A stretch of DNA of 64,000 bases from PVC group bacterium (lineage in GTDB: Bacteria > Omnitrophota > Gorgyraeia > B26-G9), in assembly GCA_024231215.1 (NCBI GenBank), contig JAAEQR010000003.1, positions 22,660 to 86,659 of the forward strand, read 5' to 3'. Both the position numbers and the translations under genes were made by a program. Under the pieces are notes generated by a model that was not told the DNA's origin, ran no database searches, and saw nothing but the letters and a program-made list of their open reading frames with translations. Below are positions 33,021 through 60,730 of the stretch, piece by piece (position 1 is the stretch's first letter; every line of letters starts with the position of its first letter).

Positions 33021-34271
33021 ATGACTGGATATGAAATGCGAAAAATATTAAAAATAACCGGATGTATTTTCCTGTTAGCGGGAGTTTTATGTAATGCGCA
33101 AATTGGGGTTTCTCAAGAAGCGTGTTCTAATAATTTACTATCTCCGCGGCTTTCATTACAGCAGGAACATTTTCTTAGGATTTTTTCTGCAGATAAAATT
33201 CCGGCTATTAGACGGACTACGGATAGTAAAACTACTTATTTACCTGCGGATTATAGTTTGGAGGTAAAGGAAATACTTGTCCAGGTGAATTATTGGGGAA
33301 CTATGGAATATGTGATAGACGAAATACATCAAAAACTTCCGCAAGATATTGCGATGGTTATCATTTTTAATGAACGCATTAAGCCGTATTTAGATTATGC
33401 TAAAAACAAGTTATCTTCTCGAAAAGTAAGATTTATAATGTCTGAAAAAATCAGCGTTTGGGCAAGAGATAATTATATCTATTCTTTTTCTAAAAACAAA
33501 CCGATAATGGTGTTTCCAGACGGAGAGTTGCTGCGTAATATGATAGAATTGACGACAGATAAAAGAGCTATCTATAAACTCGCGAAGAAGTTGAAAATAA
33601 AAATAAAACAGGCAAAGTTTCATTTTACCGCGGGTGATATTATGACGGATGAAGAAAATATATTTGTCGGTGCGGCTACTATGCAGGATAACTTTAATAG
33701 ATATAAAATGTCTTGGAAGGAAACGTCTAAAAAAATGCAGGCTTTATTTGGAAATCCGATAGAAGTTCTGCAATTAGATGTAAATGATATTGATAATGTG
33801 CTTACTCTTTTACCGGGCAAGCGGGCAGTATTGGGTAATAATGAGCAGTTTGATAGTTTTTTAAAGGGCCATTATCATGAAAAAGTTGGTGACATTAAAA
33901 AACGTTTACTGGAGTTAGGATATGCGGTTATTGATATCCCCTGGCGGCCGCATGAAATTGATCATGGCCATGCTGATACGACTACGCTGATCTCTTATAA
34001 TAATGTTGTCTTTTTAGACCGTGATAGAATACTTTTGCCTCAGTATGGAATACCGGCAGATAAGGAAGCCATAATGACTTGGGAGCAATTAGGCTATAAG
34101 GTTATCCCGGTTCAGGCATTTTGTAACGGGGAGCATGGCGGAAGTATTCGTTGTTTTACGAATATTATCAACGCTGATTTTATTAATTATGATTCCGAAG
34201 ATTCTTCTAGAATATTCTGTCCCTCAGTTTCTCTTCAGCCGTTAGAACAATTGATTGAAATGGCTATATAA
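33021..34271 (+). CDS. Tagged-family member 1: exported agmatine/peptidyl-arginine deiminase-like protein (guanidino-group-modifying fold)
   Basis: VWARDNY, FHFTAGDIMTDEENIFVG, HGHADTT and GEHGGSIRCFTN (catalytic Cys context). The leader is followed by LLSPRLSLQ and the C-terminus is QLIEMAI. An alternative start is the ATG at 33036. Confidence 0.75.
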   Translation: MTGYEMRKILKITGCIFLLAGVLCNAQIGVSQEACSNNLLSPRLSLQQEHFLRIFSADKIPAIRRTTDSKTTYLPADYSLEVKEILVQVNYWGTMEYVIDEIHQKLPQDIAMVIIFNERIKPYLDYAKNKLSSRKVRFIMSEKISVWARDNYIYSFSKNKPIMVFPDGELLRNMIELTTDKRAIYKLAKKLKIKIKQAKFHFTAGDIMTDEENIFVGAATMQDNFNRYKMSWKETSKKMQALFGNPIEVLQLDVNDIDNVLTLLPGKRAVLGNNEQFDSFLKGHYHEKVGDIKKRLLELGYAVIDIPWRPHEIDHGHADTTTLISYNNVVFLDRDRILLPQYGIPADKEAIMTWEQLGYKVIPVQAFCNGEHGGSIRCFTNIINADFINYDSEDSSRIFCPSVSLQPLEQLIEMAI

Positions 34272-34372
34272 AGTTCAGAATCCACCCCATTTTTACAAGC
34301 TACTTAAAAAATTGTCAAATCTAAGCCGTAACTAGCTGCGAGTAAAAGGGATATGTAAAACATGTCCTTACC

Positions 34373-34401
34373 TTGACAGAAGTATATACCTATGGTATAC
34401 T
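34373..34401 (+). promoter_or_regulatory. Cluster promoter P2 (CCTTGACA-17 nt-TATACT)
   Basis: TTGACA at 34373-34378 and TATGGTATACTT, with the hexamer at 34396-34401. Confidence 0.7.
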
Positions 34402-34457
34402 TTTGAGTCTTTTTATTTTACCTAATAAAAATATATAAAAAAACAAGGAGATTTGTT

Positions 34458-37400
34458 ATGATTTCAGTATTAAGTCGTAATTTTTTCTTTAGAACAACCG
34501 CAATTATTTTAATTCAAGCATTTTTATTAATAGACATATCGTGGGCCTGTGGTGGGAGGCTTAATGATATTGATGACAGTAAGGTTTTTGAAGATAACTA
34601 CCTTGCTCCTTCCTTAATTATTAATCACTCTGACTTTTCAAGTTATTTTTCTAGTCCAGAAGATATTACTGCGAATCAATTCAGTAGTTTAAGTTCTGCA
34701 GAAATCGAAACCTTAACATATAAACTTGGCCTAACTCTTACCAATGAAAAGCAAGCAGCAAGAGAGATTGAAGAGATTAAGAAAGAACAATTTAAAATAA
34801 TGGATCAGTTTAGTGAAGGGTTAGAGAACAAGGAGCAACGTGAAAAAGCTTTGAATCAGGTAGTAAGAGATACCAATAAAGCGATTGATACTTTAAGGGC
34901 TGATTTTGTTGTGCAGGAGAGGGCAAAAGCTGAGTTAAAAATTAAAGCAGAAGAGTTGAAAATAGAAGCAGAAATTGCAAAGCTAAAATTAGGCAAAGAG
35001 AGAAGAGAAAACTTTGCGAAAGAAGCTCAGCAGGCATATGATCAGGAAATCGCCAAGCTTATTAAAGAAATCAAAGATGCCGCGAAATCAAAAAAAAGAA
35101 AGGCAGAGGAAGAGTATAAGGAACGTGTTAGCAAAATTGAGGAATGTGTTAGCAAAATTAAGGAGGGACTGCTTGAAGGAATATACATATCTGATTCGCT
35201 GGCTCAGGATATTGAAAAAATCAAGCAGGATACAAATGCCAGGATCCAAAAGATAGCTGCGGATATGCGTACTGAGAAGGGCTTTTTAAGCGATACAGTC
35301 AGGGGTATTATTATTGGCGTGTTTAAAATCGCCTGGTATTGGCCAAAAGGTAAGATAGCTGTTTTAAAGATTGAATTGAGCACTCATGAAGGTTATGATC
35401 TTAGCAAGTCTCGTAGTAGATTTAAGGCAGAAGTTAAGGAAATTAATAAATCTGCCAAGGCAGAGATAGAAGCGGTTAGGGACGGAAAAGATAAAAGGAC
35501 ACATAAACTTAAAGAAGAGCTTGATCAGGCTGGTTTAAATATTGAAAAAGATAAAACGAGGCTGGAACAGCTGGAATCAGATAAGAAAAAACAGCCGGAA
35601 ACAATTAGACAAGAAGTAGAAAACGCAATAAAAGAAGCTCAGAAAGATGCAGCTTTAAAAATCCTTAGCGGTCTTCAAGGTGATGAATATGTAGAACTCA
35701 GGCTGAAGGCTTTAGAAACTGTTTTGCCGCTGGTTAAATTATACGAAGACCGCCAGTCAGAAGGCCAGATGGACATGAGAATTGAAAGTAGGGAGGAGTC
35801 CATTGCCGCTTTATTTTTACGCGCGTATCGGGAAGGGCTTAGCGCTATTTCGATTACCGATGCTAAGCAATTACCTTCTCCTGAGGCGGCTAAGGCACAG
35901 CAGATTGTGAACAGACATATCAAGCGTTCTCGAAAGAAAAATGAAGATAAAAGAAAACCGCTGAAATATATTCCGGGAATCGAATTAGTCGTGTCTCTGG
36001 ACGGAGAGAAAGTTCCGGTAATTATCTATCTGCCGGAAAATTCACGTAACTTGGCGAACGATAAGACTGTTCAGGATTTGCTGGCGCGTAGAAGACCGTT
36101 TATGTTACAGGAACTCGCCCATATTTTATACGTATATAACGGAAAGATTGCTTTAGCCGATGCTCATAAATCTCTAAAAGCAGCGCAGATATTTTTTGAA
36201 CGCATGGCGGAATTTGTAATTAAAGGCAGGATCCCGTTGCGGTCCGTATTAGGGGTCGTATATTATGAAGGAACAAAGCAAAAATCTGATGAGCCGGACA
36301 GTCCGGAGAAACAGAAGCTGATGGAGTATATCGCCCGGCTTTGCGTACACCATCCGGTTTATAAACAGAGTGAGCTTTTCTTTCTGCCGGGAACTAATTT
36401 CAGCGGTAGTGTAGATCTGGAAAAGGAAAATATGCTCGGCAGCGGAGCGGATCGTCATCCGCATGAAACGAGTTATCGAGATAGGATTTTAAAGGCAGTA
36501 AATTATAAATCGGGATTATGGGAGAAGATTGTTTATGAATATGAGGGGTTTTTAAAAAACGTTTATATTTGGGGTTTAATGATTACGGCAGGTGTAACGA
36601 TTGTTGGGACACATTCACTTATTTTGGCCGGACTTTTTGCGGTGATGTTCTATTATTTGATTGCGACATATCCTGGATCTAAAAAAAGTGCATTAAAACA
36701 ACAGGTGCAAGTAATTCCCCAGGCAGATATTGCGTCAGAGGAAATGATGAAATACAAAGATTGGAAATTTGATCCGGCTAAAATTCCTCAACCCAAACCA
36801 GAAAGCGAAAAGAGTGCTTCTAAATGGGGAAAAGTGATGGAAACCGCAGGAAATATTTTTGATAAACTGGATATATTAGAAAATCTTTTTTATAGAGCGA
36901 CAGCCGGGACTAAGTATTTTGCCGGCAGTTTGAGAGAGCATTTAAATAAAAATAAGATCACAAATAACTTTTTCAGAAACGATTTGAAGCCCTGGCAAAA
37001 ATGGACTTTCTTTATTTCCAGTTTGACAATAAGCGGAGTATTGGCCGGTTGGTTGGCCGGCAGTGCATGGCTCGGAATTAAAATAGGGGCATTAGTCTGG
37101 GGTATTGCAATAGCGTTAAAGATTTTTGTGTACATAACCGATTGGGATATGGTGCTTTTACTTTTTGGATTTGCTGGTAGTGGGATAGCCGGATGGTTCT
37201 TGGGAAAAGACTACCCGTGGCAAGGAGCTTTTATTGGTCTTACCGGGTGGACGGGTTTTTTAAATAGGAAAGGAATAATATCCTTTTTTAGAGACAGAAT
37301 AAGAAAAGAGATTGATTTTTATAAACGTTTTAGGATGCTTGGGCCCAAGGCTGTTTTTATCCGAAAGACTCTGAAATTACAGCAGGATATGGCTAAGGGA

Positions 37401-38723
37401 ATTGTATATGTGAATATGGTGGGAAAATCGTTTGGCCTGAGAAAAATAGAGGTTGTGAATGTTTTGGCTAAACATGGTTTTGAATATGTAAAGATACAAG
37501 ATGCCAGCACATTGGTATTTGCCAAAAAGGACGTGATGAGAAGGATCGGAGCGGAATTTTTGAAAACAGCTTTAGAAAAATCCGGCACTTCCTGGGAGAA
37601 GATGACCGAGACTTTAAATAAGATCACAGAACATTTTGAAAAAATGCTGGTCGAGGTAACGCTGAGCACAGGGAACGGCAGGACACGTAAAATGTTTATC
37701 CCGGATCCGAGAGAAATTGCCGATGATCAGGTTATGTATAAGCTTTACCGGATTATCGCCATGTACAAGGCACAGGGATTAGTTTTGGAAAATCCCCAAA
37801 CCCGTCTGGTGGTTGATGTAAAAGGAGCGGACGGACAAGTCAGACCAGTTACAGCAAACGAATTGGCCTTAGTTATGAATAAATATTTTGACATTGTAGT
37901 ACCCATGCCGGAGGAGGGAAGTACGCCGGTGAAATCCAGGATTAGTCAGGGGGAGGTAAGGATACTGGAAGCTACCGGACAGCTTAATGAACTTTGGGAA
38001 CAAGGGGTTAAATCTTTAGTTTCGATCAACCTTGGTTCGCAGATCAGAGTGATTGTTGCGGAATTGCTCAAAGATGAAAAAATCGGAACAATTCGGGTAA
38101 CCTCTTATCCGACAGAATTAGGGCGTGACCTGATTGATTTTAGCTCCGAGGCCGGGAAATCGGTAGAAAGTTTGATCAGTGATCAGGCAATATTGGAGGC
38201 GGCGGAAGAGATGGGCTTACTGGAAACGATTGCGCGAGAGTTTAATATGGATAAGGAGAGCGTAACCCCTGAGCATATCGGACTGATCGCTGCCGGGCGA
38301 AATCCTTTTAATCAGGAGCAAGAGTTATACCAGCCTGTAGAGGTTAAAAAGTCGACGATGCATATGGGCAGTAAATATTTTGGCGGAGACACCGGGTCTA
38401 AGCTTGAGCGATTAGAGGCTGTGGCCCAGGAGTTATGGAAAAAGATAGATCGCAAAATAGCGGATTTTATCATCAAGCTGGATGCGGATAGAGCTGCGGA
38501 ACCGGGAAAGACCTCTTATCATCTTAGCGGAGAAACAATGACTTTGGATATCGCTAAGTTAAGAACGGAAAATTTGCGCCGGTTTCTTGAAGAGAAAAAG
38601 GCTGAGCATATCGAATTTTCCTGCGGGGAAGACCCCCTATCGGGAAACGCAATAATCGACCATGATTTAGAGCGGTCTTCTGAGATTACCGAACCTGCTT
38701 TGTTGGTTGAAATGGCGATTTAG
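34458..38723 (+). CDS. Tagged-family member 2: 1421-aa protein with a K/E-rich coiled-coil region and an internal multi-TM block
   Basis: Leader IILIQAFLLIDISWA, YLAPSLIIN box, Lys/Glu-rich heptad-like sequence at about nt 34720-35700, 6-7 hydrophobic helices at about nt 36560-37265, and C-terminus LLVEMAI. Confidence 0.85.
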   Translation: MISVLSRNFFFRTTAIILIQAFLLIDISWACGGRLNDIDDSKVFEDNYLAPSLIINHSDFSSYFSSPEDITANQFSSLSSAEIETLTYKLGLTLTNEKQAAREIEEIKKEQFKIMDQFSEGLENKEQREKALNQVVRDTNKAIDTLRADFVVQERAKAELKIKAEELKIEAEIAKLKLGKERRENFAKEAQQAYDQEIAKLIKEIKDAAKSKKRKAEEEYKERVSKIEECVSKIKEGLLEGIYISDSLAQDIEKIKQDTNARIQKIAADMRTEKGFLSDTVRGIIIGVFKIAWYWPKGKIAVLKIELSTHEGYDLSKSRSRFKAEVKEINKSAKAEIEAVRDGKDKRTHKLKEELDQAGLNIEKDKTRLEQLESDKKKQPETIRQEVENAIKEAQKDAALKILSGLQGDEYVELRLKALETVLPLVKLYEDRQSEGQMDMRIESREESIAALFLRAYREGLSAISITDAKQLPSPEAAKAQQIVNRHIKRSRKKNEDKRKPLKYIPGIELVVSLDGEKVPVIIYLPENSRNLANDKTVQDLLARRRPFMLQELAHILYVYNGKIALADAHKSLKAAQIFFERMAEFVIKGRIPLRSVLGVVYYEGTKQKSDEPDSPEKQKLMEYIARLCVHHPVYKQSELFFLPGTNFSGSVDLEKENMLGSGADRHPHETSYRDRILKAVNYKSGLWEKIVYEYEGFLKNVYIWGLMITAGVTIVGTHSLILAGLFAVMFYYLIATYPGSKKSALKQQVQVIPQADIASEEMMKYKDWKFDPAKIPQPKPESEKSASKWGKVMETAGNIFDKLDILENLFYRATAGTKYFAGSLREHLNKNKITNNFFRNDLKPWQKWTFFISSLTISGVLAGWLAGSAWLGIKIGALVWGIAIALKIFVYITDWDMVLLLFGFAGSGIAGWFLGKDYPWQGAFIGLTGWTGFLNRKGIISFFRDRIRKEIDFYKRFRMLGPKAVFIRKTLKLQQDMAKGIVYVNMVGKSFGLRKIEVVNVLAKHGFEYVKIQDASTLVFAKKDVMRRIGAEFLKTALEKSGTSWEKMTETLNKITEHFEKMLVEVTLSTGNGRTRKMFIPDPREIADDQVMYKLYRIIAMYKAQGLVLENPQTRLVVDVKGADGQVRPVTANELALVMNKYFDIVVPMPEEGSTPVKSRISQGEVRILEATGQLNELWEQGVKSLVSINLGSQIRVIVAELLKDEKIGTIRVTSYPTELGRDLIDFSSEAGKSVESLISDQAILEAAEEMGLLETIAREFNMDKESVTPEHIGLIAAGRNPFNQEQELYQPVEVKKSTMHMGSKYFGGDTGSKLERLEAVAQELWKKIDRKIADFIIKLDADRAAEPGKTSYHLSGETMTLDIAKLRTENLRRFLEEKKAEHIEFSCGEDPLSGNAIIDHDLERSSEITEPALLVEMAI

Positions 38724-38772: not shown

Positions 38773-38801
38773 TTGACGAAGTATGCCTTATATGGTATAC
38801 T
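38773..38801 (+). promoter_or_regulatory. Cluster promoter P3 (CCTTGACG-17 nt-TATACT)
   Basis: TTGACG at 38773-38778 and TATGGTATACTTTAC, with the hexamer at 38796-38801. Confidence 0.7.
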
Positions 38802-38861
38802 TTACTACCTATTTTTAAATAATCCAAACTATAATAATAACCTATTGGGAGAAAACAAGTT

Positions 38862-41800: not shown

Positions 41801-42191
41801 GGCAGGTAAGATGAGCAGGAAGAAGGAAGTACCTTTTTCTATCTGTGGTAAGCTTGCGTCTACCCCTGAATTCATTCTATTTTCACTATATGCAAAGTCG
41901 TTGTCGCTTTTTGATATCCGACTAAGCGTTGGTAAAGATTCTATAGCGTACGTCAAAGAATTTATTCGCCATGTCGATACTAGACGCATTAAAGATATCT
42001 TTAATGATTATCGAAAAGGTTATGATCAGAATAAATTTGATGAGAAAATAGCAGATGAAATAGAAAACATAGTGCTTTCTATGGGAGAATTAGCCAAGCC
42101 TTTTCTACAGGGACAAGTTAAGATGTCGTTACAGAAGAAAAGGGGGCAGGCATCGAAGGCTCCTGTGTTAGTGCATGAGTATGCAATATAA
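38862..42191 (+). CDS. Tagged-family member 3: 1109-aa protein whose C-terminal half resembles PEP-utilising enzymes (swivel His-domain plus TIM barrel, PtsI/PPDK-like)
   Basis: GAKHYAVMAGDHGFPVI (compare GGxTSHAAIxARxxGIPAV), GLYRTEYEY (compare GLFRTEFL), LFPMVS, VGAMFETPQAF, FVSWGSNDW (compare SIGTNDL) and FSICGKLAS (compare CGEMAG). Leader ILIQAVLF, FLSPVLEIN box, C-terminus LVHEYAI. Confidence 0.8.
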   Translation: MGINKKYLYLRIIACILIQAVLFGNSGLIGVVRAENFLSPVLEINNKLVKTSFETPQVKSRRFVHNLDDLSKLSRRKRDDLEINVLKRIRNINLKGFNFLSREEQENFIFVDLDFAEYVLKTIFTDKIKEDMSQKNVSYEIITRIIVDMFILLNKVLEQQEGQDNTYIACTNYTFSKDRKGQTYVLTVNFEKKGVEAKISKFIAEEIDAEMPNIVSVSGPIEKITGNKSIDVSFYGVSKNNKVLTPSEITRAVKKLPPNAENIDISELRIAHKRLLNLARDRYEKQDILKEITPAIERKIKTGIVAEGTSSFTPITEKAFVGKIICAEVVEKEKKPTYPLVSYYSETLRKDLRLLDNAINTAMYKYEGIDINTVHHFLQDAFAFARHDSRETRKAPTAQFLSHLMDERKAVRVRIRKELLEIITYTPMLNKDNEPREISEIMEEELAELAELQDYEDNMYIWGELNRLNQEDLLWDNIMSQANEIVGNIYQYIEGVDPEPKNEKEQMALDAIENARKAVPTDTQIGSMVDTVLQDLPRQLFAWLRKYDCSLHEAFFRSMQPIVDQLVQAQEHTSQMKGGLSLNLHTELCTFVDTVLLELGEYESRHVVVHNDSEKEPFILYVPGDLGGPEEYLRFRRLYPNMVGIVVKEGAKHYAVMAGDHGFPVINKIDLIEMSEGKLPLELVLKKKTNGIMRISRGGKAFLYINPSLRDTLEAETIIKTAQAIKILCEANIDLEGEDGKLKTYDGVEAPEIMMNLDIAEDAEDLPSRVIRKIGLYRTEYEYERHGELTEEAWYKIFKKIVKDSEGDFIAVRLPDRKVSGEGGDIKNPKAFGKSNLEGLDFLLDERAKGRRISTIILRALMRVYAEDGVVGALFPMVSQERAEGIIDFVEEIKENLIFEQKNKNKREALEEALDSFSVGAMFETPQAFEFKKELMEIFDFVSWGSNDWKMASSGKSRGAQGTTKELISFTPEVVKTALAAGKMSRKKEVPFSICGKLASTPEFILFSLYAKSLSLFDIRLSVGKDSIAYVKEFIRHVDTRRIKDIFNDYRKGYDQNKFDEKIADEIENIVLSMGELAKPFLQGQVKMSLQKKRGQASKAPVLVHEYAI

Positions 42192-42202
42192 AAGAGGATA
42201 TT

Positions 42203-44379: not shown

Positions 44380-44408
44380 TTGACAGGTTGTATTTCATAT
44401 GGTATACT
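44380..44408 (+). promoter_or_regulatory. Cluster promoter P4 (CCTTGACA-17 nt-TATACT)
   Basis: TTGACA at 44380-44385 and ATATGGTATACTTTACC, with the hexamer at 44403-44408. A GC hairpin gggccg/cggccc (44436-44456) lies in the leader. Confidence 0.7.
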
Positions 44409-44480
44409 TTACCGCTTTTATAATAATTAATGTAGGGGCCGCGCTCGGCTCGGCCCGAATAGTCTATAGAAGAGGTAAAT

Positions 44481-46349: not shown

Positions 46350-46363
46350 AGGAAGGTAAAAAT

Positions 46364-49380: not shown

Positions 49381-49409
49381 TTGAAAAAAGCCAAATCATA
49401 TGGTATACT
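49381..49409 (+). promoter_or_regulatory. Cluster promoter P5 (TTGAAA-17 nt-TATACT)
   Basis: TTGAAA at 49381-49386 and ATATGGTATACTTTACC, with the hexamer at 49404-49409. Confidence 0.65.
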
Positions 49410-49475
49410 TTACCGATTTTATTTATCATTTTTTAGCAACTTTTTAAAGTGTATTTAAGAAAGAAGGAGTTTTTT

Positions 49476-52400: not shown

Positions 52401-55019
52401 ATTATTATCCGGTTAATAAATATTCCGATAAGTGCAATCGGATTACTTATACAGTATCCGGCAAAATTGTTGATTAAATTCATGGTAAAAATAGTCATCA
52501 CTCATCGTCAGATACAAGAATCAGCACGGATTGAGCAGCTGATTATTGCCGCAAGGAAAAATATCGAAGAGGCTGTTAGTTTGTATTCTAAGGGTGATAA
52601 ACCAACCGCGGAAGTAAAAATAGATGCAGCTTTAGATACTTTTGGAGATGCAAAACAGACGCAGGCTAAAATTTTGCAGGCTTTTAAAGATAATGGTTTT
52701 CTTACGGAAGATGACACAGAGTTGAATAGCTTGTTTGATCAGTTGGCACAAAGCACAGATTATGCGCAAAAAGAATCTGTGAAGGCGGAGATTGTACAAA
52801 AGATAAGCATGAATCAGCCGGATCCTCTTCCGAGCGTAGACGTAATACTTGAAACAATAATTCCGGCGGCAGAGCAAGCATATATTGATAAGAATTGGGC
52901 TAGTTTGGAAGCTGCCCTGGATGTCTTTTTGAATTTTTATGAAAAGGTAAAAGAGCCTAGGGAGGAAGAGATTGTATTAAATGGTTTTGCGGGTGCTTTT
53001 CGTGAACATGATATATGGAGCGATACCCTGGATGTATTATTTGAAAAATTAAGAAGTCCGGGGCAGAATTATGAGCAGATTAGAAATGATATCAAAAGTT
53101 ACATTCAGAAAAAAATGAGTGGCACAACTCCGGAAGTGCCTGATTTAGATCAGGCACTTACTGCAATAGCAGAAGCGACGGGGTTATATGCGGATAAAAA
53201 ATATGAAGAAGCCGAAGCTGAATTACTTAAAGTATTGCAGTTTTATGCATTAAATACAGTAAGCGAACGAGAGCGTACAATTGTCATGGATAATATTAAG
53301 CCTTTGTTGCCTACAGAGGATAAGCAGTTAGAAGCGTTTTTTAGATCAATTGCCGATCAAAATACTCCGGATGAAGATAAACAAAGTTTGATAGCTGCGA
53401 TTATAGAAAAAATAACTATTTATCAGAAGTCCCAAGTTGATCCGACTCCGGAAATGCCGGATTTGAATAAAATACAGAGGGATGTGAATAAGGTCGTTAA
53501 TTTATATAAAGAAAAGCAAGATAATACTGCGGAAGAAATATTAGGATCGATACTGAATCTGGCAATAACTCACAAAGATAATGCAGAGGTTATAACTCCA
53601 ATATCCAATATGCTGGTGACTGCGGGATTATGGAATGATGCGGATAAGCAGTTGTTTTCGGAATTATTGCAGAAAAATGACTTGCAGGGGATAAAAGATA
53701 AGATTTCTGCAATCGTATTAAAACATAGAAATGAAATAAGATCAGCAACCGAATATATTAATACTGTAAAAGTTTTTTGTTACGAAAGAAAGTTTAATTG
53801 GGAAGTTGCGTCACAGTCGATTGATTCAGCCTTAACTCTTTATGAGGAAAATGCATGGGTGAGAGATTCAATAGCAGTAGCTTTAACCATGGAAAAAGCA
53901 TTGCTGGATAATGTTACCCGAAATGAATTAATTGGGAAGTTTAATAATGCGATAAAAAATAATGAAAATACAACCGGGATAAAGGGTGAGATAAAAGCGG
54001 CTATAAAAACTTATGCAACAGCGCAGTTAGAGAAAGTAGAGAAGGTAAAGCAAGTTGCGGCGAAAGATAAAGTTAGCAGTTTGACAATAATTATGCGTAA
54101 CAGCTATTACGCGAATGATCTGGATCTTCCGATACAGGCACGGGATGATTTGTTAGCAACATATGTTAAGGTTATGCCATTGCGGAGCTTAATAAAAGAA
54201 CAAATTATAGAAGCTGATTTAATGACAGAAGAGGATGTGAATAGATTATTCGGAGCTTTGGATAGGGTTTCTTCTGATGATGAAATAAAGGATGCACTAG
54301 ACGCTATCGAGAATAATATGTTAACCCATGTGTTGGAGCAACGGCTTGATAAGGCGCAGACCACTATTATACTTATAGCTGATCGTTATGAGGTGGCGGT
54401 AAAAGATGAAGACTATAAGAAAGCAGAGGATCTTTTGAATTATCCTTTGGCTGTGGCGTTAGATTGTAATGAGCATGCAGAGGCTATCTTGACGGAACTG
54501 GAAAAACAGAAATTAGTAACTACTAATGAAGTTAAAGGACACTTCCGGGACTATGTGAATTCCAGGGATGCCGGGTATCTCGATCTTTTAAAACGTAAAA
54601 TAACCGAAGCACAAAAAGCTCTTAAACAGATAGAAGAGCCGAAACAGCCGGATGATGGACAGCAGAATGATATTATTCAGTTGAAAATGAAAGTGGTAAA
54701 CTTTATTGCTGAGGCATGTGGTAATTATTATGTAACTGAAGATTTTGACGCGGCAGGAAAATCTCTTAATGAAATATTGAATGCATATATGGAACATCCT
54801 GAAATACGTGATTTTATCACTGAAATCATGGAGAAGAATGACTTGATGAACGATACTATTAAGGGGTTATTTAAAGACTTAGGAGTCTTGTCCGATAATA
54901 ATATTTCCGAACAACAGATTGATAGTATAAGAGGAAAGATACAGGATGCTGTAAAAGCAAATGTAAAAGCAGTAAAAAGAAATAAAAAGATGCTGGAATT
55001 AATTGGCATGGCGATTTAA
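49476..55019 (+). CDS. Tagged-family member 7: giant (about 1847 aa) alpha-helical repeat protein
   Basis: I prefer the ATG at 49476 (AAGGAG Shine-Dalgarno sequence 7 nt upstream) over the GTG at 49449. Leader VLIQAFLLMNVSGAFA, TLAPNIAIS box, C-terminus ELIGMAI. There are at least 12 degenerate repeats of about 90-110 aa. Confidence 0.85.
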   Translation: MLSTKNNQKIGFKLISFVLIQAFLLMNVSGAFAGLAVAQNSVENQTTLAPNIAISHNALQGMFMVEQAPVIKVPESLIDVDYFMKTVRRAYLTRKVNAVKKAEDLETAMLGIVEKYTSADTDKVRSAIITKVRKAGKELPIYKEVEKMLTKKSLHMEMIKHVLKKKQLGEKVFTANSAGELLKTFGVDEETQQQAINDAKQTIGLGVKLTRKELKNILTQIPSKEKIPSLAIEYLDNKYKIKEWWGVQLFKGIWMCKIGQMSWPVLGVKIVRFVKENDLLSKFWGKFVAWWEGSFKSFIINYIKGIKFQYSQGSGYNFETARNWLDTLLRLYIDKSDREDAEIDQAQTREYIFDQMRKKGIVPEEYKLLFASMVSKQPVPENIEGFAKTASEKRLTNEDIKKLTIMLDKVIDRAEIAISQYELSGNSRTDEKAWDMLDKRFEVYLSVVEKPLITVFDMCSKYRIISDMVFMMFKNSGLLLENDKYLFSRIGDKNIFEDVKIQIRERIEDNRKILSGKLDKNDYTITTAGNNLKIILQYILMIKQTAFADGKVDLYEAKNWFGKLFDFYKQSTPESRRDIIKRLKRAELILSDKDEALFSELLKSKPGVTEKIIIAMTKNVKTKRAGESKRQKLIKQILSDKYRYVSKINAQVSDETVLKSVDKKELIGVIDRFVRAQNLIMEADKVYLAAATPEEYAVAGEILEDVLSIYKLTKYRMERNIIFKMLIEARLVTREHKGLFDLLYAGSATAVEDIKDAVTAQVQQRKKDLEESFIEIREAVNKSVELYEKAAELSKEQIDEFLNEKMAKVISDFTQEYSFEQVLESIRRMETGEKIDFLVDLYEDDKARPDQKKRIFEILKEVGLLDGFWVNVHNFFSKLGLTKRFAAIKERLKETILGKVYSVLGEKKLKLGGQAIVYAKAAQALDPALKIYVKEPLARQFITERLEAANLIDNSIQMKAMFWFLAGAKPFEPTNIIIRLINIPISAIGLLIQYPAKLLIKFMVKIVITHRQIQESARIEQLIIAARKNIEEAVSLYSKGDKPTAEVKIDAALDTFGDAKQTQAKILQAFKDNGFLTEDDTELNSLFDQLAQSTDYAQKESVKAEIVQKISMNQPDPLPSVDVILETIIPAAEQAYIDKNWASLEAALDVFLNFYEKVKEPREEEIVLNGFAGAFREHDIWSDTLDVLFEKLRSPGQNYEQIRNDIKSYIQKKMSGTTPEVPDLDQALTAIAEATGLYADKKYEEAEAELLKVLQFYALNTVSERERTIVMDNIKPLLPTEDKQLEAFFRSIADQNTPDEDKQSLIAAIIEKITIYQKSQVDPTPEMPDLNKIQRDVNKVVNLYKEKQDNTAEEILGSILNLAITHKDNAEVITPISNMLVTAGLWNDADKQLFSELLQKNDLQGIKDKISAIVLKHRNEIRSATEYINTVKVFCYERKFNWEVASQSIDSALTLYEENAWVRDSIAVALTMEKALLDNVTRNELIGKFNNAIKNNENTTGIKGEIKAAIKTYATAQLEKVEKVKQVAAKDKVSSLTIIMRNSYYANDLDLPIQARDDLLATYVKVMPLRSLIKEQIIEADLMTEEDVNRLFGALDRVSSDDEIKDALDAIENNMLTHVLEQRLDKAQTTIILIADRYEVAVKDEDYKKAEDLLNYPLAVALDCNEHAEAILTELEKQKLVTTNEVKGHFRDYVNSRDAGYLDLLKRKITEAQKALKQIEEPKQPDDGQQNDIIQLKMKVVNFIAEACGNYYVTEDFDAAGKSLNEILNAYMEHPEIRDFITEIMEKNDLMNDTIKGLFKDLGVLSDNNISEQQIDSIRGKIQDAVKANVKAVKRNKKMLELIGMAI

Positions 55020-55048
55020 TTGGTGAATGGTTGATCGTGAATAGTTTT

Positions 55049-55070
55049 TGGGCCGGTTGAGACCGGCCCA
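55049..55070. other. GC-rich hairpin (tgggccggt / accggccca) without a downstream U-tract
   Basis: 9-bp stem with a tgag loop, flanked by T5 upstream and A3 downstream. It lies between the giant gene and the next family member. Confidence 0.4.
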
Positions 55071-55088
55071 AACTGATATATAATTAAT

Positions 55089-56639
55089 ATGAAAATAATT
55101 ACAAGTATAATCATACAGATATTTTTATTTACTACCTTGTGCTTTGGCGCGGGAGCGAATAGCTATCTTTCCCCTGAGATATCCATGGCTAGTGAAGGAG
55201 TAAAGGACAGGATATCTCAGGTATCCGAGCAAGATAATACTGCGTCTATTTTTCCTACCTATGATGTGATTAAAGAACTCAAGAAAGAAAATTATATTTC
55301 AGGTAAAATTGGCCAGCATGATTTTGCCGGAACAGTAAGACGACGGAAAGGTTTTTTATTTATCCATAATGTATATAAGCCTCAGAGCAAGAAAGATATC
55401 CGATGCTGGGGCGGTGTTTTATTTAAGGTTCCGTATGAAATAATACCTTCTGAAGACGAGGATAAAGGTGTGTTTTTGAAAATGCGTATAAAAGATGTAT
55501 CTAAAAACGGAAAGTTTTCTCTTACCTTGCAATGGCCGGAATTAAAGAATGATAGTTATGTGCGGCTTGTCTATGATACGGATAAAACAGGGGAGATCAC
55601 TATAAACTTATCTAAACTGGTTAAGGACAGAGGATTGCCGGCTGGGGATCAGTTTTATGTACAGGTATTGCCGGTTGGTCATAATGCTAAAGTAGAAATA
55701 GATGAATTTGTTTTAGAAAATATTCCGGTGCGGCAGGAAGAAAATGCTGTGTATAACCGGCATATATACCCTATATATAAAGAAGGGGAATATCCAATTA
55801 ACTTAACTTCGTATCAGGCGGAACAAATTCGCGTGTTTTTGTCTGCAATTTACTCGATTTCAGAAGAGAGCAAAAGGAAAGATGTTTCCAAAGTAGAAAT
55901 AGGTGGTGAGTTGTTTGATTTGCTTAATCAGATAATGGAAGAGCAGGAGAGTTTATGTCTTTTAATGGAATTGGGATATGAAGAGCCGCTGTTGAAAATA
56001 TTAACAGTATTAAAAAAGAAGTTTTTGCGTATGTCTAACATAGCAGTAAAGGTTGAAAAGCTAAAAATAGAAATGCAGAGTAATTCTCGAATGTTAAGAG
56101 TAAGAAGACTGGAAAAAGAGTGGTCTTATATTAATAATCAGTTCGAAGAAAAAAATGCGCAGTACACTGAGACTTTACGCCAGCATCGGGTATTTGGTTC
56201 ACCTCATCCGGGAAGCTATGATGAGATTATGTCCTTGTTTGAAATAAAGAATCATTTGTTTGGAGAATTGAATCGGACAAAAGATGAGTTATTTCGTAAG
56301 GTGGTTGAATACTATAATCATTGTCGTAACTTTTGTAAATTTAAAAGGACCTTAAAGCAGAAGATGGAAGAGATAAATACCATATTAAACAGCAAAGAGG
56401 AGGCTAATATATATTCGAATCCGGAATTATTAGCAAAAGAATTTAAAAAATATTCGTCTTTGATGGGCTCTCCTTCGAAGGCGAGCCGCCTGACTGCCGA
56501 AGATAAAAAATCTGTTATAAAGATGGTTATGTCTTATATTTCTTCGCAATCCGATAGACGCGAGGAAAATATCACTTCGGTGAAATCAATTAAAGAGATT
56601 TCTCGTCCTGCTTTATCTTTCGTGGAATCAGCAATATAG
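55089..56639 (+). CDS. Tagged-family member 8: 516-aa protein of unknown function
   Basis: Leader SIIIQIFLFTTLCFGAGA, YLSPEISMA box, C-terminus SFVESAI. There is no obvious Shine-Dalgarno sequence. Confidence 0.75.
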   Translation: MKIITSIIIQIFLFTTLCFGAGANSYLSPEISMASEGVKDRISQVSEQDNTASIFPTYDVIKELKKENYISGKIGQHDFAGTVRRRKGFLFIHNVYKPQSKKDIRCWGGVLFKVPYEIIPSEDEDKGVFLKMRIKDVSKNGKFSLTLQWPELKNDSYVRLVYDTDKTGEITINLSKLVKDRGLPAGDQFYVQVLPVGHNAKVEIDEFVLENIPVRQEENAVYNRHIYPIYKEGEYPINLTSYQAEQIRVFLSAIYSISEESKRKDVSKVEIGGELFDLLNQIMEEQESLCLLMELGYEEPLLKILTVLKKKFLRMSNIAVKVEKLKIEMQSNSRMLRVRRLEKEWSYINNQFEEKNAQYTETLRQHRVFGSPHPGSYDEIMSLFEIKNHLFGELNRTKDELFRKVVEYYNHCRNFCKFKRTLKQKMEEINTILNSKEEANIYSNPELLAKEFKKYSSLMGSPSKASRLTAEDKKSVIKMVMSYISSQSDRREENITSVKSIKEISRPALSFVESAI

Positions 56640-56667
56640 TTAATATTTATAGGAAAAAAATTAAATT

Positions 56668-57936
56668 ATGAGTAGTAGATTTGGAGTAATATTTAAAATC
56701 ATTGTAATAGTACTTGTGCAGGCATTTTTGACGTTAGATCTTGCTTGGGCTGCGCAGGGGAATCTGCGTTCGTTTCAAGCGGATGATACTATTTCTCCTT
56801 ATATCCAGGTCGAAAATATTTCTTTGCAGGCCGGATTTTCTGTTTTATTTACTAAGGTTGCTGTGAAAGATATTGCTCAGATTGAAACTATTGAGAGTAT
56901 AGAGCAAAACACTACTAACTCATCCATCCTATCTCAAATCAGAAATTGGATGGAAAGATTTTTTCTAAAAATCACATTTTCTTTAGGACAGATATTGTTA
57001 GGGTGGACTGGACTTGTTTGGGCGCAGGAGCATATAGAAGAATATAACGGCCCTTATTTTGATAACGTATGGTCGTATTGGTGGTATCGGACATGTAATT
57101 TTTTTACAAATCCAGTTGTTTTTAAGACTGTATTGGTTATCTCAGGTGTAGCAATGGTTTTTTTAGTCGCGAGTTTTGTTGTAGCTAACCTGATGACAAG
57201 TAAAAAAGATAGAAGCAATCTGGGAATGGTGATATTGATTGGTTTGATTGGTTATTTGGTTCTAAGCAGTGATATAGGCAATAAAGTACAAGACTTTTTC
57301 TTTCCCGATGTTATGCCTGATATGAAGACTTCGACACAAAAGAGTATTATGGAGCACAAATTAGGACTCCCTGGAGTAGGCATACAGACAAATGCGGTGC
57401 ATTCGGAAGTAATACAAGAATTCACCTCAAAAGGAAAAACAAGGAAAAATGTAATTATAAACGGAAAGATAGTAGGAGATAATATTCCTCAGAAGAGTTT
57501 TACACTTGATCAGAATGAGATTGTCTTGGCTGTATTGTTCATGCTTGCAGGGATTTTTTTAATTGATCATGCAATAAACAAAAATAAAAGAGGTCAGAAA
57601 ACATTAATAGATATATCTTTTGCTTTCTGGGGCCCGATAATAGAGGAGATAATTGAGATATTGAAAGCGTCATCTCAATCTGCAGGCCAGCTGGTAACGA
57701 TTAATGAATCAGACATAGCTGATTTACCATCAGAGACTGAGACTGTGTTGGATCAGTCAGGGGTGTTTTTCTCGGATAAGAATTCTGCCCAGGGAGAGCT
57801 TCAGCTTTATATGGAACAATTCGGGGCGCTTCTTTATCCTACAAACTGGGATGATTTTCGAAAAGCAGAACAGGTGCATCGTAACCGGCTGAATAATTGT
57901 AGTACATCATATGTTTTGCTGGAACAGGCTGTTTAG
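56668..57936 (+). CDS. Tagged-family member 9: 422-aa polytopic membrane protein
   Basis: Leader VIVLVQAFLTLDLAWA, TISPYIQVE box, about 4 internal hydrophobic helices, C-terminus VLLEQAV. Confidence 0.8.
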   Translation: MSSRFGVIFKIIVIVLVQAFLTLDLAWAAQGNLRSFQADDTISPYIQVENISLQAGFSVLFTKVAVKDIAQIETIESIEQNTTNSSILSQIRNWMERFFLKITFSLGQILLGWTGLVWAQEHIEEYNGPYFDNVWSYWWYRTCNFFTNPVVFKTVLVISGVAMVFLVASFVVANLMTSKKDRSNLGMVILIGLIGYLVLSSDIGNKVQDFFFPDVMPDMKTSTQKSIMEHKLGLPGVGIQTNAVHSEVIQEFTSKGKTRKNVIINGKIVGDNIPQKSFTLDQNEIVLAVLFMLAGIFLIDHAINKNKRGQKTLIDISFAFWGPIIEEIIEILKASSQSAGQLVTINESDIADLPSETETVLDQSGVFFSDKNSAQGELQLYMEQFGALLYPTNWDDFRKAEQVHRNRLNNCSTSYVLLEQAV

Positions 57937-58013
57937 CTCCATAACTTTACGCCTTCCAATAAATATCAATTGCAACCAATTGTAAATAAATAGCTTACAG
58001 AAATAGACCTGCC

Positions 58014-58042
58014 TTGACAAGCCTGCCTATATATGGTATACT
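58014..58042 (+). promoter_or_regulatory. Cluster promoter P6 (CCTTGACA-17 nt-TATACT)
   Basis: TTGACA at 58014-58019 and ATATGGTATACTTTA, with the hexamer at 58037-58042. Confidence 0.7.
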
Positions 58043-58096
58043 TTAAAACCATTTTTAATGTGTAATTTATTGGGATAATTTGAGTTATGAATTTTA

Positions 58097-60730
58097 GTGA
58101 AAAACGGGGTGCAGGTTTTGTTAGTAAAACATTCTAAAATATTGATTCTTACTAAGCTTTTTGTATTGCTTCTGGTGCAGGCGATGTTGATGACAAATAT
58201 TGTCTGGGCTGGAGGGTGGGAAGTCTTATGTCCAGATACCAGAGAAATGCTTGCTCCTACTCTTCAAATCAATAGCACTGTGATACAGGATAGTCTTGCT
58301 GCATTTAACCCTGAACATCCAACTAATCTGAAATATCTTTCCACAGAAGATGAAGTCTTTAAACTGTCCGAATATGTAAAACAACGTGTTCGGGAACTTG
58401 GATACCAGAATAGGGAGATAGATAAAATATCTAATAATTTGCTTGATCTTTTTCTATCTCAAAAAGATAACGGAGGAAGTGCAAGTTTATTGAAATTAAA
58501 GCAGCAGTTGGCAGTTTTGAAAGAATCAAAAGATAGTTTTCCGGCAGAAAGATTTGAAAATCAGGAGATGCAAATTATAATCCAGGTGATGGATATGATT
58601 ACTGCGGTTATCAAGCCTACTTATGATGAATTTGAGGGAATGTTTTTAGAAGATGTATTGAAAAATAAAAAGGCGCAGGGACTAGGCTATACGCAGTTGT
58701 TTTGTATTTTAGCCGGAGCCATCGGCTTGGAAGCATTTCCCGCATCGACAATGTATAATGTGGAAAATCTGGATAAGAAGTTTAATATGTTGAATTATGT
58801 CCGACTTATCACAGGAAAATTTGTTCGGGTCGATCTGATTAATACTCGATTACTGATAAAGGGGCCTTTTCTTTTAACGGAGGAATATTATATTAGAGAC
58901 AATTACTTTATCCCTTTGGAAAGTTCTGCAGATAAATCTTTGTACTCGTGTATTCGTATAGAGTCTTTTTCTAAACTACCAGCGTATATTTGGGATGTCA
59001 AAGGAGCTTTGGCCTATAGGAAGTTTAGCAAAGAAAAATATAAAGATGAGGAGAGTGTTTTAAGAAAGTTGGAACTTGCTAAAATAATCAAGATTTTTCT
59101 AAGAGCTAAAGCAATAGACCATGATGATTTATTAGTGCATTTACACTTAGCTAATATTTATGCTTTGACTGGAATTTATCAAAAGTCGGTTGAATACATA
59201 AGCACGGCAATTCAATTGACCAAACATATTTTTCCCCGAAAATTTGTGGCTGATTTATATCAATTTCGTGGGGAACTATATTTAGAAATGAAACGGAATC
59301 AAGAGGCAAGAAAAGACTTTGTTCAGGCGATTGAGTTAAATCCATTGTTAGAAAAGGAGATTTTAGAATGCTGGAAGGCTGAAACAAAGAAGCCATTTGC
59401 TTCGGCATTGAATAAAAACAGTAAGCCGGTAGTTAATATTGATGATTTAGTGCCGGCAATTGAACTGCCTGGCGCAAAGGGGAGGATTCTAAGCCACAAA
59501 GACAATGTACTATTGTTAGCAAAAGGTAAGATCCCAAAGGTAGGTTCCGGAAAATTTCGGGATAATGCCCTCAAACTTAAAAGGGCAAGCAGTTTTTTAA
59601 GAGAATATTATAAAAAAGAAGATAAATTTGGTGCTAAAGCTGAAATGCTTAAGAAAATCAGTATATCCGGAGTAGATATGAAAACCAATTTATTATATTA
59701 CGATCCTGTGTATAATTTATGTGTGCCGGCTCATATAGTCAGAAGAGCCCAACTGATTGAATTCTCCATGAAGTTTCTTGAACAGTGTGATGTAAAAACA
59801 GATAATGGTATTCGTCTCTTAGCTAAATATATTGACCAGGCAATTAAATTTTTTGTTAAATATGAACAACTTAAAAAAGAGGTCAGGAATAATCCGACAG
59901 ATTCAGATGCTATGTATGAAGCTTTGTTGCCCTTGACTAGGCTATATGAGAACAGGAAGCAGGGAAATATTTTTTCCAAAAAGGCGATGAGAAAAGTGCT
60001 GGCCGGCCTAATAGAAAAAGATAATATTATCGAACAGAAATTGAGCAAGAAAGTTGAGACGGCTGAACGAAAAGTAAAGAAAATGATAATGAATTTGGAA
60101 AAACAAATGCCGAACTTGCTGGGGTATCAAATCCGGGATAAGATTTTAAAAATTACTCCGTTATGTGAAAATATTGGCGAGGACCTGGACCAGGCTGGGA
60201 AGTTTGATGAAGCAAGAAAATATTATTTGGAGGTTGTACGACTGCTTAAATTATCCGAGTTGGATTTGGGTGCCTGGCCGGTAATGTGCCAGAAGAGAAT
60301 TACTTACTTTTTACTGGAACATGGGTTGTTTATTGAACTTATTGAATTGCTTGGTATATTTTGGGATCCGGATGAATTTATCCGGGACATTTCTCAGTTG
60401 CATGAAACAGAATCCGGATATTTGAAAAATATAGAGGGGAAAGAGAGAGCAGAATATTTGTTAGATCAACAGGGGCTGTGGAAAAATATTATAGAAGGAG
60501 ATCATTCTATTTTATGGAATGAGCTTTATTATCAAATGTCGGTACGGAAATCTCAAGCTAGTTTTGCTTTCGCTTTGGAAATTGAGTATCTTCAGAAAAA
60601 GGCAGAAGGATTATATGAAAAGTTATGCCGAAAATTAAGAGAATTGGATGCTCAGCATGAAAGAGGTAACGCGTGGAGAGAGAACGAGTTAGATTTATCG
60701 AATGATATCTTAGTGGAACAGGGAGTATGA
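58097..60730 (+). CDS. Tagged-family member 10: 877-aa protein with TPR repeats and a possible transglutaminase-core-like (SirB1-like) region
   Basis: Leader LLLVQAMLMTNIVWA, MLAPTLQIN box, C-terminus ILVEQGV. GLGYTQLFCILAGAIGLEA..LNYVRL..VRVDL is followed by TPR-like LHLANIYALTGIYQKSVEYISTAIQL..RKDFVQAIELNP. The true start may be the TTG at 58118. Confidence 0.75.
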   Translation: MKNGVQVLLVKHSKILILTKLFVLLLVQAMLMTNIVWAGGWEVLCPDTREMLAPTLQINSTVIQDSLAAFNPEHPTNLKYLSTEDEVFKLSEYVKQRVRELGYQNREIDKISNNLLDLFLSQKDNGGSASLLKLKQQLAVLKESKDSFPAERFENQEMQIIIQVMDMITAVIKPTYDEFEGMFLEDVLKNKKAQGLGYTQLFCILAGAIGLEAFPASTMYNVENLDKKFNMLNYVRLITGKFVRVDLINTRLLIKGPFLLTEEYYIRDNYFIPLESSADKSLYSCIRIESFSKLPAYIWDVKGALAYRKFSKEKYKDEESVLRKLELAKIIKIFLRAKAIDHDDLLVHLHLANIYALTGIYQKSVEYISTAIQLTKHIFPRKFVADLYQFRGELYLEMKRNQEARKDFVQAIELNPLLEKEILECWKAETKKPFASALNKNSKPVVNIDDLVPAIELPGAKGRILSHKDNVLLLAKGKIPKVGSGKFRDNALKLKRASSFLREYYKKEDKFGAKAEMLKKISISGVDMKTNLLYYDPVYNLCVPAHIVRRAQLIEFSMKFLEQCDVKTDNGIRLLAKYIDQAIKFFVKYEQLKKEVRNNPTDSDAMYEALLPLTRLYENRKQGNIFSKKAMRKVLAGLIEKDNIIEQKLSKKVETAERKVKKMIMNLEKQMPNLLGYQIRDKILKITPLCENIGEDLDQAGKFDEARKYYLEVVRLLKLSELDLGAWPVMCQKRITYFLLEHGLFIELIELLGIFWDPDEFIRDISQLHETESGYLKNIEGKERAEYLLDQQGLWKNIIEGDHSILWNELYYQMSVRKSQASFAFALEIEYLQKKAEGLYEKLCRKLRELDAQHERGNAWRENELDLSNDILVEQGV

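Follow-up and report, generated by a model that had tools for sequence, protein, structure and literature searches.

Eleven genes in the window encode different proteins with the same ends

We analyzed a 64,000-nt stretch of DNA (hereafter the window) from the genome of a PVC group bacterium of the phylum Omnitrophota (contig JAAEQR010000003.1). Eleven of its genes, ten in an array that starts at 33036 and one further upstream at 15252, encode proteins with different central parts (payloads) and with the same three sequence elements, or tags, at their ends: an N-terminal leader, a box shortly after it, and a C-terminal tail. A preliminary description made from the sequence alone had listed these eleven open reading frames (ORFs) and proposed that they form a cargo-tagging or effector system. 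All eleven were confirmed at their positions, with slight shifts of the annotated start in three (33036, 49476, 58118). The window has a GC content of ~38%, a strong positive GC skew and nearly every gene on the + strand. The tagged genes are listed below (nt, position in the window; aa, amino acids).

15252-16244, + strand: 330 aa, locus tag GY853_00210; payload fold unknown, no Pfam or NCBIfam match; non-Q leader; box at aa 42-57 (nt 15375-15422); tail LVEYAI (nt 16224-16241)
33036-34271, + strand: 411 aa, longest ORF from 33021; PAD_porph-like deiminase payload; box LSPRLSL.. at nt 33138-33185; tail LIEMAI
34458-38723, + strand: 1421 aa; no domain match, internal hydrophobic segments at ~706-740 and 869-916; leader ..ILIQAFLLIDISWA; box at nt 34602-34649; tail LVEMAI
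38862-42191, + strand: 1109 aa; PEP-utilizers_C payload; box at nt 38973-39020; tail VHEYAI
42203-44296, + strand: 697 aa; weakly DHH/pyrophosphatase-like payload; box at nt 42341-42388; tail LVLQAI
44481-46349, + strand: 622 aa; no domain match; leader ..VIIQMFLFMDFAWA; box at nt 44568-44615; tail AISISI
46364-49183, + strand: 939 aa; patatin-like phospholipase payload; leader ..VIIQAFLVLDFAWA; box at nt 46487-46534; tail LVNIAI
49476-55019, + strand: 1847 aa, longest ORF from 49449; no domain match; box at nt 49617-49664; tail LIGMAI
55089-56639, + strand: 516 aa; no domain match; leader MKIITSIIIQIFLF..; box at nt 55167-55214; tail FVESAI
56668-57936, + strand: 422 aa; 3-4 internal hydrophobic helices; leader ..VLVQAFLTLDLAWA; box at nt 56791-56838; tail LLEQAV
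58118-60730, + strand: 870 aa, longest ORF from 58097; TPR-containing payload; box at nt 58250-58297; tail LVEQGV

Regular expressions were run over the complete set of 112 six-frame ORFs in the window (minimum length 60 aa). Leader, box and tail occur together in 11/11 tagged genes and in 0/101 of the remaining ORFs, which bears out the in-window control of the preliminary description. The box, [LI]-[SA]-P-x-[LIV]-x-Φ (Φ, hydrophobic residue), lies at residues 27-49 in each of the eleven and is absent from the first 120 residues of the other 101. All eleven proteins end in [AGS][IV] after two hydrophobic residues; outside this set such [AGS][IV] ends were found in two spurious antisense ORFs only. 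The leaders have a basic N-terminus followed by a hydrophobic stretch, with the core ..[LIV][LIV]Q[AIM][FVM][LF].. in nine of the eleven, so that the Gln-containing leader reported for nine genes was borne out by translation. The leader end, described as often D-x-x-W-A, reads D-x-[AS]-W-A in four of the eleven and N-I-V-W-A in one further, and the box, present in every protein as claimed, is longer than had been recognized: L-[SA]-P-x-Φ-x-Φ-[NS]-x3-Φ-Q-x2-[FY]. Over 35 tagged proteins the box consensus is [T/C/Y]-L-[S/A]-P-x-[L/I/V]-x-[I/L]-[N/S]-x3-Φ-Q-x2-[F/Y], and that of the tail spans six residues, [L/F/I]-[V/I]-[E/G]-Q-[A/S]-I, with the general form Φ-Φ-x-Q-[AS]-I-COOH. Neither tagged end is described by a model in Pfam or NCBIfam.

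In an all-versus-all BLASTP comparison of the eleven proteins, similarity was confined to the first ~60 residues. The payloads are therefore unrelated, as had been stated, and 15252, which had been taken for a paralog, is instead another tagged gene with an unrelated payload. Five of the eleven proteins had no Pfam match at all. Among the folds previously read from the translations, the deiminase (PAD_porph, 4.6e-9), the PEP-utiliser (PEP-utilizers_C, 2.2e-23) and the patatin (2e-15) were recovered; the match to DHH was weak (1.2e-4) and under the Pfam cut-off.

The same leader, box and tail recur across Omnitrophota

A leader-only pattern, Q[AM]FLx[LMI]D[FIL][AS]W, was scanned against DNA of one genome per species from 185,579 species. 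It gave 30 matches and 16 confirmed loci, 15 of which come from Omnitrophota-type metagenome-assembled genomes (MAGs). A ΦΦxQ[AS]I end is present on nearly every matched gene in these loci and on many of its neighbors, and the genes are arranged in co-directional arrays. A second search used HMMER with a 65-position profile built from the eleven window N-termini only, against 1.84 billion cluster representatives, and retrieved 321 protein clusters at E<=1e-3. Among the 141 non-window matches listed, 107 are at least 300 aa long; 82 of these 107 end in [AGS][IV] (AI or SI in 76), and the matches lacking the tail are mostly short fragments or repeat proteins. The tail was found in 0/204 control proteins. 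The co-occurrence of the tags is far beyond chance. In independent genomes, leader and box are again associated with the tail.

The tags also outlast the similarity of the payloads: P0199 is 23% identical to 38862 over ~1,100 residues and keeps all three tags, and P0179, 32% identical to 44481, is likewise tagged, which supports the conservation in relatives that the preliminary description depended on. Tagged proteins range from ~150 to >6,000 aa. The idea of a payload-independent signal at both protein ends holds well beyond the window, as the signal is kept across species on hundreds of unrelated payloads. Judged by their sequences, the tagged genes would constitute a large class of exported proteins, almost confined to Omnitrophota and defined by its end signals and not by its payloads.

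The leader has the architecture of a Sec signal peptide

We analyzed 118 leaders position by position. The uncharged stretch from the last Lys/Arg to the first charged residue measures 13 residues in 75/118 leaders, and is therefore too short for a membrane anchor. Asp or Asn occupies Q+6 and [AS]-W-A occupies Q+8 to Q+10, followed by [GA]-G. The predicted cleavage site lies at a median of residue 29, and the box begins 3-18 residues further on (median 13). These positional statistics include the hallmarks of substrates of Sec and signal peptidase I (SPase I), i.e., a basic n-region, an h-region of 7-15 residues and small residues at -3/-1. By its sequence, the leader has the architecture of a cleavable Sec/SPase I signal peptide, with cleavage itself as a prediction. 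Its h-region contains L-I-Q-A-F-L, and on the evidence of the leader sequences the conservation of the leader is far above that of ordinary signal peptides.

A conserved protein, NbX, is encoded at the head of tagged arrays

In six leader-selected loci the gene immediately upstream of the tagged genes encodes an untagged protein of ~550 aa, which we named NbX. NbX lies directly 5' of tagged genes in L006, L008, L009, L010, L011, L012, L019, L020, L021, L023, L025 and L102. In the nearest relative (L019, read jointly with L004), NbX is followed by at least seven tagged genes, and within the close NbX subfamily tagged genes follow in every locus with context (L019, L020, L021, L023, L025, L102). 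An 11,887-aa gene near NbX in L020, the start of which is covered by 14168-17076 of that locus, opens with the same leader and box. NbX is 62-80% identical between species, far above the conservation of the cargo. All of its 84 database relatives are hypothetical proteins, and the named ones come nearly all from Omnitrophota or PVC-group MAGs. The MAG that contains the window encodes two NbX copies (GY853_03295, GY853_03705) on another contig, of 708 kb; this conserved partner, which sits outside the window, had been missed among the partner candidates suggested previously.

Its sequence predicts that NbX carries its own signal peptide. In an alignment of 39 NbX sequences, Q96, D97, H99, E127, R471 and G496-G497-F498-H499 are invariant. 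The AlphaFold2 (AF2) model of NbX (pLDDT 86.7) shares its core fold with the Tiki/TraB/ChaN/erythromycin-esterase superfamily, as far as a predicted structure can tell, and the fold resembles that of the MARTX effector RRSP. H99, E127 and GGFH were likened to the His, Glu and Gly-x-x-His motifs of the superfamily by eye, without residue-level superposition. At the sequence level NbX had no significant Pfam match and no NCBIfam match; PF04187 was touched by 3/39 members, with a best E of 0.011. An NbX profile searched against PDB sequences gave spurious EF-hand matches in the helical insert only. NbX differs from the Tiki/TraB/PrgY/ChaN/erythromycin-esterase superfamily by this ~300-residue helical insert, by its almost exclusive occurrence in Omnitrophota, and by its fusion or adjacency to large tagged proteins.

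Several further observations concern NbX and its surroundings. Comparison of NbX N-termini (L006 4637, L019 839, L021 150, L102 10001, L103 10001) revealed a conserved S/G-F-L-x-T-[KR]-Φ-x-x-Φ just after the signal peptide (SFLAPKTREI in L103). This segment, disordered in the model, is similar to the cargo box and may act as a pseudo-substrate or mark a site of autoprocessing. In L009 (2663-2854) the last ~64 residues of NbX are repeated, with 69% identity, just 3' of a tagged gene, which looks like the remnant of a duplicated NbX. In L103 (1-5738) the end of a gene for a 7,803-aa C39-peptidase giant adjoins NbX. The main array of NbX and tagged genes has a conserved place on the chromosome, where it follows SMC, a TPR-Peptidase_MA_2 protein and a HemN-like radical-SAM gene (L006 423-2962, L016 6062-8624, L102 6078-9121), and the secreted MA-clan peptidase found there is a further candidate for a processing enzyme.

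In other lineages NbX is fused to payloads

Scanning metagenomes with the NbX profile yielded at least 478 relatives, with 48 analysable loci. The NbX domain forms the N-terminal part of a 700-3580-aa protein in 29 of the 48. In 15 of these 29 fusions [MLTFI]-L-[AS]-P appears 40-100 residues past GGFH (background 0.0055 per window of sequence), and 28/29 end in [SA]-[VLIA], e.g., ..WSV, ..RSL and ..WAA. Several of them start with the same leader as the tagged proteins (e.g., L032, ..FVSFILLQAFLF). NbX is a separate gene in the remaining 19 loci, and in 16 of these 19 a large exported protein is encoded directly downstream, in most cases after a gap of -22 to +40 nt; these downstream proteins often have an L-[RK]-P motif after the signal peptide. 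A box hidden Markov model (HMM) gives weak matches in the fusions, the best of which cluster 56-74 residues past GGFH. The box and the post-NbX motif would be equivalent on the strength of a common L-x-P core (L-[AS]-P) and a common position.

From these sequences, the architecture leader - NbX - L-x-P box - payload - small/aliphatic tail appears to be widespread, and the clade of the window appears to have a split version of it, with many tagged proteins for one or two NbX genes.

The tags are confined to chain ends and are selected at the protein level

In the tail, Ile and Ala/Ser are encoded by varying synonymous codons and each of the three stop codons occurs, which places the selection at the protein level. 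A role of the tail as a DNA-level terminator or coupling signal was ruled out on the same grounds. The strict 16-residue box was found at the N-terminus in 128/177 proteins, and its internal matches numbered 0 in 134,147 residues.

L006_9944 (L006 9944-18904) encodes 2986 aa with one tag set, collinear with modules that are separately tagged elsewhere: its residues ~8-884 match L008_540 and L011_430, ~880-1852 match L019_2711, and ~2400-2930 match L010_789 and L019_4637. All the separate modules carry a leader, a box and a tail of their own; at the junctions of the fused protein there are no tags. A single tag set on fused proteins is what is predicted for a targeting or processing signal, and also for a docking element of chain ends. 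On the sequence comparisons, this one protein corresponds to three or four genes that are tagged separately elsewhere, and tagged arrays and very long proteins interconvert through fusion and fission.

Docking elements deserve consideration here: the tail of one protein could bind the box of another, or NbX, so that modules assemble head-to-tail into the equivalent of a giant, as in split polyketide synthases. That the same modules are either fused in the 2986-aa protein or adjacent and separately tagged would suit such an arrangement, as would the giant genes with the same leader and box, the restriction of the tags to chain ends, and the co-directional arrays with a common type of promoter (see below). 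However, near-identical tags on all proteins could not encode an order, and the fusions keep a box right after NbX, which suggests a role beyond the joining of modules. We therefore consider head-to-tail docking improbable.

The junctions between tagged genes also bear on whether the tags have a function at all. In L004 a ~225-nt block is ~99% identical at two junctions (9740-10065, 18103-18428) and runs from the tail's last codons across an intergenic region of 100 nt into the following leader, of which it covers the first ~37 codons. Recombination therefore occurs at tag junctions, and the identity suggests gene conversion or cassette duplication. Such blocks would be in keeping with shared ends that are functionless, arising by chance, from composition bias, as remnants of a duplicated family or as recombination cassettes. 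Against this stand the conservation of the tags across species while payloads fall to 23-32% identity, the synonymous variation of the tail codons, the recovery of the tail by a leader-only search and the strictly terminal box; taken together, these make an absence of function hardly credible.

Payloads and accessory genes

According to Pfam, the payloads of 62 tagged proteins outside the window include SAM (S-adenosylmethionine) methyltransferases, GGDEF, GT1/trehalose-synthase-like glycosyltransferases, NDK and AAA+ ATPases, and further PEP-utilisers, radical SAM, HD, phosphoglucomutase and B12-binding domains and HEAT repeats. Together with the window's own proteins they substantiate the earlier claim that the payloads are cytosol-type enzymes, and an effector delivered elsewhere would be a reasonable interpretation of such a repertoire. 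To a large extent, the same repertoire has been reported for the giant proteins of Omnitrophota (bioRxiv 10.64898/2026.06.07.730766).

Small PilZ genes alternate with tagged genes in L020 (10197-10580, 13302-13667), L021 (2397-2765, 6264-6626) and L005 (4881-5240). As they occur in only 3 of ~20 tagged/NbX loci and are absent from the window, PilZ was rejected as a core component. PilM/N/O and pseudopilins adjoin one array only (L013). No PDZ protein was seen in the loci examined.

The tail had been compared in the preliminary description to a type-I-secretion-like signal. Extended to the other elements, a Lap- or MARTX-like type I route would have the tail as secretion signal, the hydrophobic N-terminal segment as anchor at the inner membrane and NbX as a periplasmic release protease that cuts the box as LapG cuts LapA, under control of cyclic di-GMP (c-di-GMP). 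LapA/LapG/LapD and MARTX systems likewise comprise giant multi-domain proteins with a C-terminal signal, an N-terminal site for a dedicated periplasmic protease and c-di-GMP-linked neighbors, and MARTX carries the Tiki-fold effector RRSP, to whose fold that of NbX is similar. With cytosol-type enzymes and very large proteins among them, the payloads recall MARTX toxins and RTX adhesins; the tail is a terminal hydrophobic run, often with an acidic residue before it; PilZ genes occur in the L005, L020 and L021 arrays and GGDEF in some payloads; and the gene for the C39-peptidase giant lies beside NbX in L103. Yet type I substrates have no Sec signal, and the classical type I signal fits poorly with a Sec-type leader, whose 13-residue h-region and [AS]-W-A resemble a cleavable signal and not a stop-transfer anchor. 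Such substrates also need an ABC exporter, a membrane-fusion protein and TolC. No linked genes for these and no RTX repeats were found in the window or in the fetched, annotated loci, whole genomes lying outside this search. LapG is a cysteine protease, NbX is not one of the LapG type, and PilZ is absent from the window and from most loci. We consider a type I route unlikely.

A different placement of the payloads was also weighed, in which the N-terminal segment is an uncleaved anchor, the payload faces the cytoplasm and the tail is a cytoplasmic element, e.g., a C-terminal degron or a PilZ-binding site. There is a precedent for such a degron, as ClpX recognises ..RRKKAI on MuA. The payloads need ATP, GTP, SAM or reducing power, and the neighboring PilZ proteins are cytoplasmic. 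In a 2026 preprint, many of the long proteins of Omnitrophota are assigned to a class that is anchored in the membrane and has its domains in the cytoplasm. The leaders themselves argue for the opposite orientation: basic residues before the hydrophobic stretch and Asp after it would put the payload outside, and 13 residues are too short for a transmembrane helix. NbX's own signal peptide, moreover, puts NbX on the exported side. A cytoplasmic payload has, in our view, a small chance of being right.

A shared promoter and the neighbors of the array

The preliminary description had overlooked a promoter common to all seven tagged transcription units. It is of the sigma-70 type, with a near-consensus extended -10 (TTGACA-N14-TGG-TATACT-TTAC), and within the window it stands before these seven units only. 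Six exact copies of TGGTATACTT are present in the 64 kb, all of them 5' of a tagged gene, and a variant lies 5' of 15252. The same promoter element is found 5' of tagged genes and of NbX in other Omnitrophota loci. The promoters are as follows.

15176-15208, + strand: related promoter, TTGCAA-N17-TATACTTTAA, 5' of 15252
32959-32991, + strand: promoter (TTGnnn-N14-TGG-TATACT-TTAC) 5' of 33036
34373-34405, + strand: promoter 5' of 34458
38773-38805, + strand: promoter 5' of 38862, for the unit 38862-44296
44380-44412, + strand: promoter 5' of 44481, for the unit 44481-49183
49381-49413, + strand: promoter 5' of 49476, for the unit 49476-57936
58014-58046, + strand: promoter 5' of 58118

The array is preceded by genes for a sigma-54 activator (29851), an ACT protein (30853) and a TraF_2-type barrel (31353), and is followed by pyruvate:ferredoxin oxidoreductase (PFOR). 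The activator (29851-31266 region) consists of AAA+ and HTH domains only, with 333 aa and no receiver or sensor domain, and is followed by a stand-alone double-ACT protein. A scan for sigma-54 promoters (TGGCAC-N5-TTGC) gave fewer matches than shuffled sequences and detected none near the array, so there is no evidence that the upstream activator drives it.

The barrel had been put forward as a candidate partner of the tags, and it could be imagined as their dedicated receptor or shuttle in a type-IX-like system. It lies immediately 5' of the array on the same strand and has weak matches to PorV/PorQ (PorV_fam, 50.8 bits versus a cut-off of 90) and PorP_SprF. Type IX cargo, too, is diverse and targeted by bipartite N- and C-terminal signals, here next to a PorV-like barrel, but the type IX C-terminal domain is an Ig-like fold of ~70-100 residues, and the conserved end here has six. 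None of the eleven proteins carries a Por_Secre_tail or T9SS type A or B domain in Pfam or NCBIfam, and no type IX component was detected. The barrel, besides scoring below the PorV cut-off, is unlinked to tags in other genomes. It is 100% identical to a protein of the 'PVC group bacterium' MAG (prefix GY853), has its close relatives in Omnitrophota, and is a TraF_2 outer-membrane protein with wide conservation: identity is 46-49% in Desulfuromonadales, where neither a leader match nor an NbX match was obtained. In the closest relative (barrel 74% identical; L001 11488-16659), radical-SAM, TPR and PAS genes, none of them tagged, fill the space from the barrel to PFOR, and no such barrel lies beside the other fetched tagged arrays. 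That the barrel serves the tags is thus very unlikely; the barrel and the sigma-54 regulator are probably bystanders. The absence of tagged genes between barrel and PFOR in this relative identifies the ten-gene array as an insertion, and tagged arrays therefore behave as variable islands.

Two other genes in the window touch on similar themes. The 845-aa exported protein encoded at 5231-7768 ends in CFI-box-CTERM (NCBIfam NF041770, 1.7e-28), an already catalogued domain, and 25925-28153 encodes a patatin phospholipase with POTRA and an Omp85 barrel (PlpD-like), the second patatin being the tagged one at 46364.

Proposed mechanism

We propose that tagged proteins would be exported by Sec and their leader removed by signal peptidase I. 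NbX would then recognise the L-x-P box, in trans on many substrates and in cis where it is fused to the payload, and would either trim the N-terminus at the box or dock it. The free C-terminal tail would be recognized in turn, as a second element, in a later step that could be passage across the outer membrane, retention at the surface or quality control. The payloads would act where nucleotides and SAM are available, most plausibly inside a host or prey cell or in a comparable compartment, which is probable because the payloads need cytosolic cofactors and because of the lifestyle proposed for the phylum. We give this overall picture of Sec export, processing or docking by NbX at the box, and a tail as second recognition element a probability of roughly 55%.

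Its parts differ in strength. A functional tie between NbX and the box is likely. The more specific role of NbX as the protease for the box is a tentative idea, which we would sooner doubt than assert. The broad formulation, in which Omnitrophota possess an unknown export-handling pathway, giant proteins included, with a three-part code at the protein ends, an NbX that reads or cuts the box, a tail that directs a further step (e.g., passage across the outer membrane or delivery into host or prey) and no homologue among known machinery, comes close to an even chance but falls short of it.

Several points weigh against the proposal. Export, cleavage of the leader and any activity of NbX on the box are inferred. 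No NbX gene lies within the 64-kb window, and among the fold relatives of NbX, ChaN and HopBA1 are to our knowledge not known proteases. Matches of the box HMM to the post-NbX motif are weak (i-Evalues 0.4-30). For mature protein 15252, an AF2 model from the single sequence reached a pLDDT of 45 and was uninformative on a pairing of box and tail. No outer-membrane translocon consistently co-occurs with the tags in the loci examined. Some cargo contains 1-4 internal hydrophobic helices, and radical-SAM, AAA+ and GGDEF payloads would be inactive in the periplasm; these two features therefore leave room for other topologies.

Relation to known sorting systems and significance

Short, lineage-restricted terminal signals on dozens of unrelated exported proteins per genome are known from sortase/LPXTG, PEP-CTERM/exosortase, GlyGly-CTERM/rhombosortase and MYXO-CTERM/myxosortase. 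As here, these sortase-type systems combine a Sec signal with one or two copies of a dedicated protein. Their signals are tripartite (motif, transmembrane helix, basic cluster) and are cut by membrane transpeptidases or proteases, whereas the tagged proteins have a six-residue tail without a helix, an extra N-terminal box, a conserved signal-peptide core and an NbX of the Tiki/TraB type. No terminal hydrophobic helix follows the tail in the tagged proteins, and there is no NCBIfam CTERM match. Conserved motifs in or near the signal peptide likewise mark an exported subset in YSIRK/GS proteins, in the ESPR of autotransporters and in Tat RR signals, but the motif here, LIQAFL..D.[AS]WA, is a different one and is coupled to a box and a C-terminal tail. 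By analogy only, PTS1/PTS2 and the docking domains of polyketide synthases are also very short payload-independent end signals, and docking domains let split modules behave as a fused giant; these are eukaryotic or cytoplasmic, with unrelated sequences and machinery.

The Omnitrophota giant-protein papers note signal peptides, nearby type II-like loci and PilZ genes, and neither they nor the rest of the searchable literature mention the motifs described here. On comparison of the sequences, we rate the tags together with NbX as a real, undescribed system without a homologous known counterpart, for which the mechanism given above is a proposal.

The Omnitrophota, an abundant group of tiny bacteria of which most are uncultured, are thought to live as predators or parasites, and the largest bacterial proteins known are encoded in their genomes. 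With the tag code, the phylum's 'exported arsenal' can be listed from sequence alone, and phylogenetic profiling with the code offers a way to the missing translocon. Together with NbX, the code opens export and processing to tests with peptides, reporter fusions and terminal proteomics. If the proposal is true, the tags would be a new type of protein-sorting signal, and NbX would provide the first bacterial physiological role for this branch of the Tiki/TraB superfamily.

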